Below, in pieces: positions 8,252-15,588 of a stretch of DNA of 64,000 bases. The stretch covers positions 32,001-96,000 of the IMG/VR virus record IMGVR_UViG_3300021400_000138. One strand, written 5' to 3'. The number at the start of each line of letters is the position of its first letter. Within the stretch, counting starts at the first letter, position 1. Both the position numbers and the translations under genes were made by a program. This DNA comes from a virus (Duplodnaviria; Caudoviricetes). The notes under the pieces are model-generated. The model had not been told where the DNA came from. It saw only the letters and a list, made by a program, of their open reading frames with translations, and did not search any database.

Positions 8252-8290
8252 TAAAGGGGAGTATAATTCTACTCCCCTTATTTATTTATT
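8252..8290. terminator. Bidirectional terminator between convergent genes
   Basis: ggggagta-taattc-tactcccc hairpin flanked by A/T tracts. Confidence 0.7.
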
Positions 8291-8822
8291 TATATGCCTG
8301 TATACTATTCTTTAAGAAATTTCTATTTGCATAGTTGAGATTTTTAGTTGTTAATAATCCTTTACTTTCCATGAGTTCTAATTTAAAATCAAGAAGATCA
8401 TTCGGAACATATAAAGATCTTGCAACTGCTTCAAAATCATTATATTCTTCAAAGGCAGATAGAACCTGTTCGTCAGAAAGCAAAAGTTCGGCGCAGAAAT
8501 AATGTGCTTGGACTTCGAGAGTATCAAGGGAATCATGAATGCCAATTTCGTGATACGTCATAACTGTGTCACCGTGGAGTATAGAATGTCCAAGTTCGTG
8601 GCCCAGAATTATTGGTTCATATTCTTCGTTGAGATTGCTATCTAATATGATGTTTTCAATTCCGAATTTATTAACATAGTAACCTTTAAGTTCTTTTTGC
8701 AAATCGTGATAATATACATTGATGTTTAGGGCAGAACAAATTTTGCGCGGATTTCGTGTTCCACATTCAGATATTATATTAGCAACTTTAAAACAAATTT
8801 CTTTTAAAACTGATTTCTTCAA
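8286..8822 (-). CDS. ImmA/IrrE-family metallopeptidase (anti-repressor)
   Basis: ILGHELGHSILH HExxH motif and EVQAHYFCAELLL; adjacent to an XRE gene. Confidence 0.85.
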   Translation of the reverse strand: MKKSVLKEICFKVANIISECGTRNPRKICSALNINVYYHDLQKELKGYYVNKFGIENIILDSNLNEEYEPIILGHELGHSILHGDTVMTYHEIGIHDSLDTLEVQAHYFCAELLLSDEQVLSAFEEYNDFEAVARSLYVPNDLLDFKLELMESKGLLTTKNLNYANRNFLKNSIQAYK

Positions 8823-8874
8823 AGTATTATCACCACCCTTCAGTTTATAGTTTATTAACTAAAGTGTATAAAAA

Positions 8875-9261
8875 TCATAACATCTCTTTTTCTAACGCTT
8901 TTCTAAGGGAATCCATAAATACCTGGCGGTAAGATTCCAGAAATATTTCTATTGTATTCTCTTCTATTGAGGTACCAGCCATGAGGGCAGGAGTTTTTTC
9001 TTTAACAAACTTTCGCAACTCTCTTTGATATGATTCCTCGTAGAAATCATCTCCTGGATCTGACACAGAATCATCGAAAAGAAATTCTTCAGTAACACAA
9101 AGTGCTTTGGCAAGTTTACGGATATTCTTCTTATGCGGTATTGCACCGAGTTTTTCATAAGAATGTATTGTTCTTTGGGATACGCCGATTTCTTCTGCCA
9201 GATCTGTTTGAAGTAATCCAAGGGAATTGCGGCAGAATTTAATCTTTTCTCCAAATGTCAT
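8875..9261 (-). CDS. XRE-family HTH repressor (ImmR-like)
   Basis: FGEKIKFCR...LQTDLAEEIGVSQRTIHSYE; aggagga RBS on the minus strand. Confidence 0.9.
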   Translation of the reverse strand: MTFGEKIKFCRNSLGLLQTDLAEEIGVSQRTIHSYEKLGAIPHKKNIRKLAKALCVTEEFLFDDSVSDPGDDFYEESYQRELRKFVKEKTPALMAGTSIEENTIEIFLESYRQVFMDSLRKALEKEML

Positions 9262-11067: not shown

Positions 11068-11865
11068 ATGAGTAAGAGAGTAATAAGAAGAAATATATTC
11101 GAGTCTAACAGCTCGTCGCAGCATTCAATCTGTGTTACCAAACGAGATGTCCACGTTGATCCAGAGGAATTTGATTATCACAGCGAAAAGTATCCGCACC
11201 CTGATGAATATCTTTATCTCTGGAATGGAAAGTTAGAAGTAAGAGACGTTGATGATGGATATGGTCGTTGGCCTTTTCAGATGTTAACGACATTCAAGGA
11301 TAAACTTCAATACGCTATCTGCGAGTTTCTTGGATACAAGTACTGTGACGATGATGACTATGATGATATCTTAGAAGAATTCAATGATATCTGCCGAGAA
11401 GTTGTTCCTGGATTCGAGAGTCTAAAATTTCATACCCACGATGTAGATATTTATCTCGATGAAAATGGAGATCCTATCCCTAGAAGAGAATTAGAATATG
11501 AAGGATGGGATGAGGAAAATCATAGAGATATTTATTCTTATCTGGACGAAGACGGAAATAAAAAATCGGCGATATTTGACGAGAAGAATTACTACGAAGT
11601 TCCCGCAATCGGAACGATTGATCATCAGAGTGCTGGGTTGCTTACGAATTTCTTGAAGGATAAGGGAATTTCGCTTAAGGAATTTTTGACGAACAAGAAA
11701 TACGTGGTTATTATTTCTGGTGATGAAGAACAAAAATGGGAAGAGTATAAGAGATCGGGTATGATCGATCTTGATTTTATTGTTGAAGAATATGACAGAT
11801 CAGGCGAAGATGTTGAATGGGAACAGTGGAAGGAGGAACACAGAGATGAAGAGAGTGATACGTAA
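11068..11865 (+). CDS. Acidic protein with N-terminal IRRNIFESNSSSQHS motif (paralogue 1)
   Basis: ORF with gaggt RBS; shared N-terminal motif. Confidence 0.75.
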   Translation: MSKRVIRRNIFESNSSSQHSICVTKRDVHVDPEEFDYHSEKYPHPDEYLYLWNGKLEVRDVDDGYGRWPFQMLTTFKDKLQYAICEFLGYKYCDDDDYDDILEEFNDICREVVPGFESLKFHTHDVDIYLDENGDPIPRRELEYEGWDEENHRDIYSYLDEDGNKKSAIFDEKNYYEVPAIGTIDHQSAGLLTNFLKDKGISLKEFLTNKKYVVIISGDEEQKWEEYKRSGMIDLDFIVEEYDRSGEDVEWEQWKEEHRDEESDT

Positions 11866-12304
11866 AGATGTGTGGGAATCCAATTCATCTTCAGTGCATA
11901 GCTTACAGATTTCTTCTGATGGAATGGAACCAAGCAAGCTTCCAGTTGATAAAGATGGATATATAACCGTTAAATACGGCGAATTCGGTAAGGATGGAAC
12001 TGTTTATTCGTCCCAGGAAGACAAATTGTCTTATCTTGTTACTCAATGTTATTATCTTGGTGGATGGGAATATGACATAAATAGAGATAATAATTACCAC
12101 TTCAGAAATATCGAAGACGCAATCATTGATTATACTGGTGCAAAGGGAATTAGAATTGTTGGTGGCGAACCTGATATAGATCATCAAACGGTTAGCCAAA
12201 TGGGTTACGACGGCATGCATCTTATTCAGAATGAATGGGACGAAAAGGAAATTCAGAGTTTTGTTTTCAACAAATATATAAGTTTGTTATGTGATTGTGA
12301 TTGA
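11846..12304 (+). CDS. Acidic protein with N-terminal IRKDVWESNSSSVHS motif (paralogue 2)
   Basis: ATG 11846 after aggagg; shares KLxY and IDHQ with paralogue 1. Confidence 0.75.
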   Translation: MKRVIRKDVWESNSSSVHSLQISSDGMEPSKLPVDKDGYITVKYGEFGKDGTVYSSQEDKLSYLVTQCYYLGGWEYDINRDNNYHFRNIEDAIIDYTGAKGIRIVGGEPDIDHQTVSQMGYDGMHLIQNEWDEKEIQSFVFNKYISLLCDCD

Positions 12305-12312
12305 GGTGAACA

Positions 12313-12741
12313 ATGAAAAAAGTAATTAGAAATGGTGTATTCGAGACAAATTCATCAACTCAGCATACTTGTGTGATTATGACCGAAGAACAGGATGAGA
12401 AATGGGAAGAAGAGAACCTATATTATTACGGAAAGGAATATTGGAATCGTTTTAAAAAACTTCCGGAAGATAAGCAGCCTAAAGCTGGAGGCTTATATAC
12501 AAAAGATGAAGTTTTAGAATTTTATAAACTTATTGGATATGAACCAGATCCAGAGATATATAGTCCAGATGAAGATGATGAAGAAAATGATGTAAATGAT
12601 ATTTTTATAAAAGAGATGGATGATTTTATTAGTTATGAAGACTGGGGTAACAGTGAATATCTCGAATATGATACCAATTACTACACGACTCCTGGCGGCG
12701 AGAAGATAGTAGTTAAATGTAAATATGGATATGATGGTTAA
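12313..12741 (+). CDS. Acidic protein with N-terminal IRNGVFETNSSTQHT motif (paralogue 3)
   Basis: gaggtg RBS; shared motif. Confidence 0.75.
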   Translation: MKKVIRNGVFETNSSTQHTCVIMTEEQDEKWEEENLYYYGKEYWNRFKKLPEDKQPKAGGLYTKDEVLEFYKLIGYEPDPEIYSPDEDDEENDVNDIFIKEMDDFISYEDWGNSEYLEYDTNYYTTPGGEKIVVKCKYGYDG

Positions 12742-12750
12742 GGAGAAGAT

Positions 12751-13650
12751 ATGGCCTGGGGCGTTTATAGAAATGGAAACTCAATTACAAGAATCAATCT
12801 CGAAGACGGTACAAAAATAAGAGAAACAAAAGATGATGAATTTGATCTTGATTTCCCAGAATCAATAGACCTGAATATAGGAACTAAGTGTGATGGCGGA
12901 TGCAGGTTCTGTTACATAAATGCGTCACCAAATGGAATTGATGCAGATCTTTTAAGTGTACCATTCATTAATACTTTGCATCCCTATACTGAATGCGCCA
13001 TCAATGGTAATTCAATTGATCATCCGCAGCTTATACCATTTTTGGAAAAACTGAAATCTAAAAATGTAATTGCCAATATTACAGTAAATCAAATTCATTT
13101 TGAAGCAAAGGAAGATATTATAAAAGATCTCGTTGATAAGGATTTGATAAAGGGAATTGGAATTTCTTTAAGGGATCCTACTTCAGAATTTATTAAACGA
13201 GTAAAGAAATATCCAAACGCAGTGCTACATGTAATTAATGGAATTTTCTCCCCCGAAGATATAGAAGCTACAAGAGATCAGGGGCTAAAGATATTAATTC
13301 TTGGTTATAAAAATCTTGGTCTCGGCGTTAGTTATAAAGAGAAGAATGATTATCTGATTAAGGCGAGACAGAAATATTTATATGATGTTCTTGAAACGCT
13401 GCCGAATCATTACAAGTGCTTGTCGTTTGATAATTTAGCCCTGGAGCAACTTGATGTAAAACGGATTCTTACTCCTGAAGAATGGGATGAGATCTTTATG
13501 GGCGAGGAAGGAACATCATCTATGTTCATTGATCTCGTCACAAAAAAATTCGGAATTAGTTCTCTGGCTTTAGAAGACGAAATGATGCCGATGCTAAATA
13601 ATATTCGAGATATGTTTCAGATTGTGAAAAGTAAAGCGAGGGAAATGTAA
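12751..13650 (+). CDS. Radical SAM protein
   Basis: CDGGCRFCY (CxxxCxxC). Confidence 0.85.
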   Translation: MAWGVYRNGNSITRINLEDGTKIRETKDDEFDLDFPESIDLNIGTKCDGGCRFCYINASPNGIDADLLSVPFINTLHPYTECAINGNSIDHPQLIPFLEKLKSKNVIANITVNQIHFEAKEDIIKDLVDKDLIKGIGISLRDPTSEFIKRVKKYPNAVLHVINGIFSPEDIEATRDQGLKILILGYKNLGLGVSYKEKNDYLIKARQKYLYDVLETLPNHYKCLSFDNLALEQLDVKRILTPEEWDEIFMGEEGTSSMFIDLVTKKFGISSLALEDEMMPMLNNIRDMFQIVKSKAREM

Positions 13651-13651
13651 T

Positions 13652-14059
13652 ATGGGTCTTGATATGTGTTTGCTCAAAAGAAAAAAGTTCCGAGAGAATG
13701 ATGATGCATATAATGCTTTAGCTAGAAAAGCTTCGGAAGAGTTGATGCATTGGGGCAAAGCAAATCAAATTCGGCAGTGGTTTGTAAATCATACGGAACT
13801 TCAGCGTAGTGATAATAATAGATATATTCCTTTAGCGAAAGAAACATTGATTTCACTAAGAGATGATTGCAATAAGGTGTGTGCCAATCATGAACTAGCA
13901 GAAGAATTAATGCCAACTTCATCTGGATACTATTTTGGCGCTGCTGATTATGATGATGTGTATTTTTCTCGATTAGAATATACGGCTGAATGCATAGATG
14001 AAATATTAGAATACGTTGATTTTGAAACAGAAGATATTGACTATTATGAAAGCTGGTAA
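13652..14059 (+). CDS. Conserved phage hypothetical protein (MGLDM...WGKANQI...YYESW)
   Basis: ORF starting immediately after the radical SAM gene. Confidence 0.65.
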   Translation: MGLDMCLLKRKKFRENDDAYNALARKASEELMHWGKANQIRQWFVNHTELQRSDNNRYIPLAKETLISLRDDCNKVCANHELAEELMPTSSGYYFGAADYDDVYFSRLEYTAECIDEILEYVDFETEDIDYYESW

Positions 14060-14094
14060 ATAAACGTTTGGCGGAGTTCGTAAACCGCCAACTT

Positions 14095-14176
14095 GCGGAT
14101 ATGATGGAATAGGAAGACATCGGGAACTTAAAATTCTCGGGCAAAAGCCGTGAGAGTTCGATCCTCTCTATCCGCA
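14095..14176 (+). tRNA. tRNA-Leu(UAA)
   Basis: GCGGATA/TATCCGC acceptor; loop CTTAAAA; long variable arm; GAGAG-TTCGATC-CTCTC. Confidence 0.9.
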
Positions 14177-14182
14177 TTTGTA

Positions 14183-14892: not shown

Positions 14893-15588
14893 ATGAACAA
14901 GCGAATCAAAAAGAAAAAACGAAATCAGTATCTTACTGGTACTGCAAAAGAAAGAAAATATAATCAATGGCTTTGCAAGAGATATCCCTTTCTCATTCCA
15001 AGATATGTGTGGACAGATAAGATGTCTTGGACTAGAGAAAAATACTACGCAAAAGTCCATGGCCATAAAGAATATGATCAGTTCAAGAGATTTTCTTATA
15101 CACTCGCCGAGGATTTTATGCCAGGTTGGTGGAAAACATTTGGATTGCTGCTTTGCGAAGAGTTACGAGAAGATCTGATTAAGTGTAAATATCTATATAA
15201 GTTTCGGTTTGTTCAAATAAAAGAGAAATACGGATCCGCGAGAATGTATTGCAACGGCGCTCCAGTAGAATCCAATGCGTTTGAAATTATTGATAAATAT
15301 GAATATATTTCAAATTATGTGTGCCAGTACTGTGGGAAGCCCGATGTTGCTCAAATAAATGACGGTTGGGTAATGACAATCTGTGAGGATTGCTACAATA
15401 AGATGAATCGCAGGAGAAAAAAGTATTTTAATCCTGTTCCATATGCGGAATTACTTGATGAAGACGAAGATTATACAATTCCAAATAAGCGAATAGTAAA
15501 AAGATACTCAAAGGAAGGAGATGAAATAATCGAGTACGACATTTCCGAAACTGTAAACGCCATCAGAAACAATTGGAGGGAGAGATGA
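14893..15588 (+). CDS. Phage hypothetical protein (QIKEKYG motif, Zn finger)
   Basis: CQYCG...ICEDC. Confidence 0.65.
   Translation: MNKRIKKKKRNQYLTGTAKERKYNQWLCKRYPFLIPRYVWTDKMSWTREKYYAKVHGHKEYDQFKRFSYTLAEDFMPGWWKTFGLLLCEELREDLIKCKYLYKFRFVQIKEKYGSARMYCNGAPVESNAFEIIDKYEYISNYVCQYCGKPDVAQINDGWVMTICEDCYNKMNRRRKKYFNPVPYAELLDEDEDYTIPNKRIVKRYSKEGDEIIEYDISETVNAIRNNWRER

Follow-up and report, generated by a model that had tools for sequence, protein, structure and literature searches.

A short N-terminal tag shared by acidic phage proteins and its linked radical SAM enzyme: a candidate protein-modification module

The described systems closest to the locus considered here are radical S-adenosylmethionine (SAM) enzymes that act on peptides or on whole proteins. 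[quoted passage not shown] Anaerobic sulfatase-maturating enzymes (anSME/AtsB) act on a serine or cysteine in a short motif near the N-terminus of a whole enzyme, making the catalytic formylglycine. Glycyl-radical activases, such as the pyruvate formate-lyase activating enzyme (PFL-AE), are small and carry a single cluster. The module described here lies in an uncultured tailed phage (IMG/VR record IMGVR_UViG_3300021400_000138); the window, the whole stretch of 64,000 nucleotides that was analysed, covers bases 32001-96000 of this virus record, which is complete at 185,390 bp and carries direct terminal repeats. In it, three consecutive genes encode acidic proteins (A, B and C) whose N-termini have a tag of about 20 residues in common, and they are followed by the gene of a divergent radical SAM enzyme (rSAM). 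With a probability of roughly 0.55, the tag serves both for docking and as the substrate that the rSAM modifies, which would make the whole a phage protein-modification module. Lengths in amino acids (aa) and isoelectric points (pI) are given with the elements of the module:

11068..11865, plus strand: tagged protein A (265 aa, pI 4.46), tag plus A/B-type body
11068..11127, plus strand: tag of A (residues 1-20, MSKRVIRRNIFESNSSSQHS)
11846..12304, plus strand: tagged protein B (152 aa, pI 4.68), minimal A/B-type body, paralogue of A
11846..11902, plus strand: tag of B (residues 1-19, MKRVIRKDVWESNSSSVHS)
12313..12741, plus strand: tagged protein C (142 aa, pI 4.27), tag plus C-type body
12313..12369, plus strand: tag of C (residues 1-19, MKKVIRNGVFETNSSTQHT), the segment placed against the rSAM in the predicted complex
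12751..13650, plus strand: rSAM (299 aa), with CxxxCxxC at C47/C51/C54

The N-termini of A, B and C follow the pattern M-K-x-x-I-R-x-x-x-[FW]-E-[ST]-N-S-S-[ST]-x-H, and in pairwise BLASTP comparisons among the three proteins the motif region is the top or the sole significant match (A-B, 13 of 22 residues identical, E 3e-6; A-C, 11 of 21, E 1e-6; B-C, E 3e-4). The tag is basic although the proteins as a whole are acidic. A first-pass annotation, made from the letters of the stretch and a list of its open reading frames (ORFs), had already reported the motif in three tandem ORFs, the strong acidity of their products, a CxxxCxxC radical SAM gene behind them and the tight spacing of the operon; the ORFs and their motif lie where it placed them, and the pI values, cysteines and gene distances determined here agree with its description. 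The tag was then counted in a census of 4.75 million six-frame residues from the window and related loci, anchored on E[ST]NS[ST] and restricted to unique ORFs. In 232 of the 233 anchor ORFs, an arginine at position -5 from the glutamate, an aromatic residue at -1 and a histidine at +7 are present as well; the sole exception lacks the arginine and the histidine and lies deep within its ORF. R-5, N+2, S+3, S+4 and H+7 are invariant in the 232 tagged ORFs, position -1 is occupied by F (200), Y (18), W (13) or H (1), and position +5, a serine in 221, also tolerates A, M and I. The glutamate lies 9-11 residues after a methionine in 204 of them. The wider consensus, over about 20 residues, is [MK][KR]xIRxxx-[FYW]-E-[TS]-N-S-S-S-x-H-[SA]; it has no conserved cysteine, nor any conserved glycine within its invariant part. 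Such a motif is far beyond chance.

The tag is not confined to one kind of protein. BLAST sorts 315 unique tagged bodies into 15 clusters, the largest being A/B (153), C (118) and a third family (20), and the tag is equally invariant on all of these bodies, the minor families included. It is portable across otherwise different acidic folded proteins. A search with a 42-residue profile of the tag, in which 8,000 candidates were scored, returned at least 7,990 protein clusters, scoring up to 85 bits for single-tag proteins; only one of the top 120 matches has a Pfam domain (Trans_reg_C).

The enzyme and the tag are found together whichever of the two is taken as the starting point. The rSAM loci in IMG/VR were collected by an alignment-based search, a single-sequence search there having found none. 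At least one tagged ORF lies within 6 kb of the rSAM in 80 of 80 such loci and at least two in 64 of the 80; nearly all of these ORFs share the strand of the rSAM and lie immediately upstream of it. Among species genomes, 36 of 43 rSAM loci have a tagged ORF, and most of the others end at a contig edge. Starting from C-type genes, the enzyme lies within 8 kb in 74 of 80 loci, usually as the gene that follows; of the six exceptions, three have an rSAM elsewhere in the genome and three are incomplete records or a short contig. Starting from A-type genes, it lies within 10 kb in 77 of 80 loci, and in two of the remaining three the sequence is truncated right behind the A-type gene. The first-pass annotation had put forward the co-occurrence of motif and enzyme as a point to be checked, and these profile searches and neighbourhoods establish a linkage that runs both ways. 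When all ORFs of 83 neighbourhoods were clustered, the rSAM recurred in 80 (strict cut-off), and proteins of the C, B and A types recurred in 75, 43 and 41, respectively; besides the rSAM and the tagged ORFs, no conserved gene was found across these 83 neighbourhoods. The C-type protein is the member most often immediately 5' of the rSAM.

The partners also occur as a single polypeptide. P0295 (575 aa) consists of an A-type body followed by the rSAM in one ORF, and the identical ORF was assembled from two separate sequencing runs. Pfam searches of six other long family members, two of them of fusion length, gave no informative domain. A different joining is seen in P0243, on the 1.4-kb contig L174, where a single ORF combines an A-type and a B-type protein, the second tag being internal and still preceded by a methionine. 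P0243 is known from that one contig, and in the window the 20-nt overlap of A and B joins two different reading frames, so that an error of a single base could be enough to produce this fusion.

The rSAM carries the cluster motif CDGGCRFC, in which C47, C51 and C54 are invariant among 31 homologues. Its alignment holds no other invariant or near-invariant cysteine, and so the enzyme has no SPASM/twitch auxiliary cluster. Against Pfam PF04055 it scores 19.9 bits, below the gathering cut-off of 29.5 and over residues 42-68 only, and a few of its close homologues do carry a precomputed PF04055 match. The best NCBIfam scores, 17.2 bits for ScmE and 16.5 bits for ACGX, are at noise level beside cut-offs of 400, and the match among PHROGs is phrog_16999 (5.5e-32). 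By sequence, the rSAM is a divergent member of the radical SAM superfamily. It has at least 6,775 homologues at E<=1e-3 (clusters at 90% identity); with homologues 45-92% identical it is much more conserved than the tagged bodies, a slowly evolving enzyme beside one to five fast-diverging acidic paralogues per phage. The rSAM of the closest relative (L001:8208-9320) is 67% identical; it measures 370 aa, its C-terminus extending roughly 70 residues beyond that of the enzyme in the window. A fourth tagged paralogue, of 174 aa, is encoded at L001 as well.

An AlphaFold2 (AF2) model of the rSAM, with a mean predicted local distance difference test score (pLDDT) of 90.9, consists of a sheet of three strands at the N-terminus (residues 3-25), a partial TIM barrel and a helical portion at the C-terminus. 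It matches more than 20 solved radical SAM enzymes with Z values of 12-16.6 (VIA-align). The best matches, by Foldseek and VIA-align, are SuiB (Z 16.6, 274 residues aligned, root-mean-square deviation 3.9) and SkfB (16.1), followed by BlsE (15.2), ChlB and EpeE (13.9), anSME and PqqE (13.6), CteB (13.3), viperin (13.1) and BtrN (12.3). In VIA-align the superposition on SuiB takes in residues 1-299 of the model and 5-399 of the template. Sequence identity to these structural matches is 9-15%. The margin over radical SAM enzymes of small molecules is narrow. A substrate that is a peptide or a protein is favoured by the fold, which does not settle the matter.

How far does the likeness to the RiPP maturases go? 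They are the best structural matches of the phage enzyme, whose N-terminal element is likewise predicted to bind the N-terminus of its partner as an added strand, with the next residues entering the barrel; in both cases one enzyme is encoded together with several proteins or peptides that have a conserved N-terminus. Unlike them, the rSAM has no SPASM/twitch cysteines, and it appears to lack a PqqD-like winged-helix RiPP recognition element (RRE), its residues 3-25 forming a sheet of three strands without the helices of that element. Its partners are folded proteins of 100-320 aa instead of short peptides, the tag holds recognition and presumed target within the same 20 residues, and the system is phage-encoded. 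Sequence identity is the 9-15% mentioned, and no NCBIfam or Pfam maturase model scores above its cut-off.

The first-pass annotation had suggested modelling the complex, and the prediction places the motif in contact with the enzyme. The rSAM and C, each with its own alignment, were folded together with a 4Fe-4S cluster and SAM, alongside three controls. The interaction prediction score from aligned errors (ipSAE) is 0.79 (runs 0.79, 0.95 and 0.61), against 0.00 for all three controls; the runs have at least 55% of contacts in common, and the pLDDT of the partner is at least 60. In the model, the interface of C comprises residues 1-20, that is the tag, together with residues 38, 57-62, 108 and 111-112. 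Tag residues 3-6 are predicted to pair with rSAM residues 21-24, a strand of the N-terminal sheet, and Phe10 of C to contact rSAM residues 81, 107, 109, 134 and 135, at the ends of the strands that line the barrel. On the side of the enzyme the predicted interface takes in 70 of 299 residues and holds 20 of the 56 invariant positions (own count). The monomer model of A (pLDDT 89.7) has the tag as its sole part of low confidence (48 for residues 1-10, 71 for residues 11-20), which fits a segment free to enter a partner. A comparable movement is known from the glycyl-radical systems, where a mobile segment of a folded protein leaves its own fold to enter the barrel of a small, single-cluster activase.

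Recognition of the tag by the rSAM is probable, and a covalent change made on it is somewhat favoured. The earlier idea that the motif is a leader or substrate of the enzyme gains from the two-way linkage, the fusion of an A-type body to the rSAM, the peptide-modifying neighbours in fold space and the predicted contact of the tag; the covalent change is what we infer from them. In the proposed mechanism, the basic half of the tag (residues ~3-8) would first dock as an added beta-strand on the N-terminal sheet of the rSAM, as RiPP leaders do, and the half with aromatic-E-T-N-S-S-S-x-H would then thread into the open face of the SAM barrel. There, the 5'-deoxyadenosyl radical would abstract a hydrogen from an invariant residue, most plausibly Ser+3 or Ser+4, leading to oxidation to an aldehyde, to dehydration or to a cross-link. 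The modified N-terminus would finally serve the protein body that carries it. Position +5 is a less likely target than the invariant S+3 and S+4, since it tolerates A, M and I. With no conserved cysteine in the tag, no fourth conserved cysteine in the rSAM and no auxiliary cluster, thioether formation and the cysteine-dependent epimerase routes appear unlikely, and the absence of a sulfatase-type motif makes the known sulfatase-maturation chemistry look unlikely as well.

Several points weigh against reading the tag as a substrate. The rSAM is without the auxiliary clusters used by most of the known peptide-modifying relatives, and the small-molecule enzymes BlsE (Z 15.2) and viperin (Z 13.1) score almost like the peptide maturases. 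The score of the complex is a model confidence and as such support, not proof. In the calibration, which used neither alignments of this kind nor riding ligands, 58 of 80 solved complexes and 2 of 110 mismatched pairs attained this score mark. Peptide complexes of distant relatives (SuiB-SuiA, CteB, ChlB-ChlA and anSME) have been solved, so that the pass could in part reflect likeness to these, although identity is just 9-15%. Finally, A and B have enzyme-like invariants of their own, and the tag might belong to the active site of the protein that carries it.

In one alternative, the tag is no substrate but a docking and active-site peptide. Tagged proteins would then plug into the rSAM as exchangeable subunits that set specificity or regulate it, the Glu, Asn, Ser and His of the tag would complete a composite active site, and the holoenzyme would act on a nucleotide, on tRNA or another RNA or on a host molecule. 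Linkage, fusion and the predicted interface fit this arrangement equally, the tag is more invariant than docking alone needs, and BlsE, viperin and DesII, all acting on small molecules, are close structural neighbours of an enzyme that has no auxiliary clusters. The module also often stands beside tRNA genes and genes of RNA repair (kinase-HD, RlaP, T4 Rnl1, Thg1). Against it, the best fold matches are peptide maturases, aligned over the N-terminal region too, the modelled tag fills the barrel at the place of the substrate, and the RNA-repair neighbours are present at only about a quarter to a third of the loci, mostly in closely related phages. On balance, such an adaptor role is unlikely, and modification of the tag itself is preferred.

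The bodies behind the tag are of at least two kinds. Conserved motifs in the body of A are GxGRxPF, DKLxYA, IDHQS, FLxNKKY and a strand followed by GDE, and R7, E12, S15, S16, S17, H19, R67, P69, K79, D185, D219 and E220 are invariant in the alignment of its family; in A/B bodies H186, Q187 and S188, next to D185, are nearly so. The invariant polar residues (R67, K79, D185-H186, D219-E220) look enzyme-like in the alignment. KLxY and IDHQ, which had been noticed in both A and B, are indeed common to the two. With the tag and the first strand removed, hhalign still aligns A with B (probability 96.8%, E 2.3e-10, 99 columns), A having an insert of about 40 residues relative to B, whereas tag-less C aligned to A and B reaches a probability of 0.4% and 2.6%. 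The three proteins had been called paralogues; A and B are homologous beyond the tag, and C shares the tag alone. In C-type proteins, conservation outside the tag is seen at a Trp around residue 31 and in a hairpin at the C-terminus (YTTxxGExxVxxxxYGYDG), and their middle part is variable and acidic.

These bodies bear on another alternative, which the first-pass annotation had also raised. Here the motif would be an intrinsic catalytic or autoprocessing site, cleaved before a serine to expose an N-terminal nucleophile or a pyruvoyl group, and the rSAM would be a mere neighbour in a pathway. Asn-Ser and Ser-Ser bonds are typical sites of self-cleavage, and the extra invariants of A and B (R67, K79, D185-H186 and D219-E220) do resemble an active site. 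Yet C-type and minor bodies have none of these residues and keep the tag unchanged, which suggests that conservation of the tag is imposed by a shared partner and not by the active site of each protein. In addition, near-obligate adjacency, the fusion and the predicted insertion of the tag into the rSAM would be left without explanation, and no known autoprocessing fold was found for A. Self-processing of this kind is therefore improbable beside modification by the linked enzyme.

A, B, C and the small gene downstream (E) gave nothing above noise against Pfam, NCBIfam and PADLOC, and PHROGs returned only families of unknown function, among them phrog_28997 for B. No match to A was found by tblastn in 50,697 phage records; its 174 word-indexed homologues are all metagenomic, and a profile of its family retrieves 1,706 clusters at 50% identity (E<=1e-3). 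The model of A had its best Foldseek match in the PDB at E 0.13 and its best VIA-align match, among 48,161 chains, at Z 2.8, and the ESM Atlas and BFVD returned unnamed viral proteins only. A thus has no named fold as modelled, which does not by itself prove a new one. Matches of A to the editing domain of leucyl-tRNA synthetase and to portal proteins are weak, cover only the beta-rich insert and were not taken as meaningful, and a HAD-like reading of its motifs (a strand with acidic residues, then GDE) was set aside, as there is no match to a Rossmann-like fold. No evidence was found for the proposal by which A-C would assemble into a heteromeric enzyme that targets nucleotides or defence signals, A-C having no match in Pfam, NCBIfam or PADLOC and A no known fold. 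As a separate observation, the ESM Atlas model of B aligns (template modelling score 0.58, 119 residues) with a 261-aa viral cluster annotated as Tad2-like (PF11195), which may be a domain resembling a tagged body fused to a Thoeris anti-defence domain; PF11195 has no match in the phage genome studied here.

Two described arrangements in which a radical SAM enzyme prepares a whole protein offer partial models for the A/B bodies. As in the anSME systems, a modified serine near the N-terminus could serve the enzyme-like invariants of A and B, and anSME is a fold match of the rSAM at Z 13.6. The tag differs from the sulfatase motif in having no (C/S)xPxR (no P/A-x-R follows the serines), the rSAM has no SPASM domain and A lacks the alkaline-phosphatase/sulfatase fold. 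PFL-AE, which serves large enzymes and, in GrcA, a small stand-alone carrier of the motif, offers an analogy to A/B and C. Unlike the glycyl-radical proteins, the phage tag has no glycine and no RVxG[FWY]-type loop and is N-terminal instead of C-terminal, and activases of glycyl-radical enzymes are not among the best fold matches of the rSAM. By analogy, the module may act in the manner of a radical SAM maturase whose substrates bear leaders, or of anSME or a glycyl-radical activase acting on whole enzymes; it fails the defining features of each.

More recent descriptions of radical SAM enzymes that mature whole proteins come from cells. In the antiphage system HXS, the radical SAM enzymes HxsB and HxsC are reported to mature the protein effector HxsA, which is processed at its N-terminus and undergoes a site-specific mass change (PMC13128918). 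CrpC-CrpA is described as a further case of radical SAM maturation of a whole protein (PMC13692751). The phage module resembles both in that whole proteins would be matured in contexts of conflict or of unknown nature. It differs from them in that theirs are cellular SPASM enzymes whose targets are HxS repeats or Cys-rich proteins. The rSAM has no match to an NCBIfam Hxs model at E<=1, and its tag is a single S-x-H-S without repeats. Radical SAM/SPASM genes with C-terminal peptide motifs have been described in vWA-MoxR systems (Kaur et al., 2020, PMC7159879), and these motifs are different from the phage tag. In the literature and family libraries searched, no paper or curated family that names the tag/rSAM system was found.

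Enzyme and tag hardly occur outside large phages whose hosts are gut, rumen and freshwater bacteria, Lak megaphages included. Among 185,579 species, each represented by one genome, there are 43 rSAM loci, nearly all on contigs of phage size from gut or rumen metagenome-assembled genomes. GenBank phages with the rSAM comprise 15 records of Lak megaphages and 9 of Microcystis phages. In Lak-A2, five tagged ORFs follow immediately after the rSAM. In the cultured Microcystis phage Ma-LMM01, gp130 is a B-type tagged protein two genes before gp128 ('Fe-S oxidoreductase'); gp131, annotated as 'histidyl tRNA synthetase', adjoins gp130. The main text of the Ma-LMM01 transcriptome paper does not mention gp128-gp131.

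In the window, which has a G+C content of about 33% and genes nearly all on one strand, the module forms a tight operon. The end of A overlaps B by 20 nt, and the gaps are 8 nt between B and C, 9 nt between C and the rSAM and 1 nt between the rSAM and the next gene; a GAGG-type ribosome-binding site precedes every gene of the operon, and the start of B is the one at 11846 (MKRVIRKD), the TTG upstream of it being rejected. Within the operon, promoter-like and terminator-like sites do not exceed their frequency in shuffled sequence. The tagged genes of this genome are exactly three, A, B and C. Two further elements follow:

13652..14059, plus strand: gene E (135 aa, acidic), in the same operon here
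14094-14177: tRNA-Leu, after the operon

Gene E matches phrog_7971 (2e-6). It had been taken for a conserved small gene of the operon; with one distant relative (L014) among 82 comparison loci, it falls outside the conserved module. The tRNA-Leu(taa) is the only tRNA called by ARAGORN in the whole window. Further downstream, 14893-15588 encodes a 231-aa protein with a zinc-ribbon-like C-terminus (weak DUF7685 and DZR_2 matches), 65% identical to a gene at the equal relative position in L001; this synteny holds with the closest relative only. On the minus strand, 8286-9261 encodes an ImmA-like metallopeptidase (HExxH) and an XRE-type repressor, divergent to the early operon that carries the module and separated from it by a few small genes. 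A switch of the ImmA/XRE type is unusual in a 185-kb phage with terminal repeats.

The setting of the module bears on a further alternative, namely that the tag sorts its proteins, either into the capsid or towards degradation, and is cut after the glutamate by a phage protease as in the internal proteins of T4, with an rSAM that is unrelated. A hydrophobic-x-Glu before a small residue resembles prohead protease sites, and several paralogues do have one N-terminus in common. The N-S-S-S-x-H after the glutamate is, however, as invariant as the residues before it, the strict linkage is to the rSAM and not to a protease or to head genes, and the module lies in an early region beside a repressor switch. 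A sorting signal is accordingly highly improbable.

At other loci the surroundings are more varied. RNA-repair-type genes lie 3-5 kb downstream of the module at about a quarter to a third of loci (for instance L009:10124-11902, L022:9742-11046 and L002:8467-9342): an AAA_33 kinase-HD fusion at 29 loci, an RlaP-like nucleotidyltransferase at 20, a T4-type RNA ligase 1 at 12, and Thg1 in L002. In the latter, a 200-kb metagenomic contig, a second and different radical SAM gene (L002:4994-5951; 284 aa; PF04055, Fer4_12) stands directly upstream of the tag module and is followed by a 33-aa ORF with a Cys/Gly-rich end (...GHCDGDGGSGGCGHCS), which may be a small peptide-maturase pair.

Returning to the favoured reading, in which the tag is docked and modified by the rSAM, a more specific and decidedly tentative version can be formulated. 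It is conceivable that the rSAM turns one serine of the tag into a reactive group (an aldehyde, a dehydro-residue or a cross-link) and thereby activates a set of phage proteins. A and B would then be new-fold enzymes that use their modified N-terminus as a built-in cofactor, and C-type and other bodies would be modified binders of host targets. If true, this would amount to a phage-wide 'activase plus tagged clients' and to a new form of post-translational control in viruses. The early position of the module, its fast-diverging paralogues and its RNA-repair neighbours are hints that fit a role in host takeover or counter-defence without showing one.

Few radical SAM enzymes that modify whole proteins are known, and almost none of them come from viruses. 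With gp130 beside gp128, Ma-LMM01 provides a cultured model for the system. Solving its chemistry would yield a new radical SAM reaction on proteins, a short portable tag for enzyme-directed protein modification, and an explanation for thousands of phage genes now listed as 'hypothetical'.

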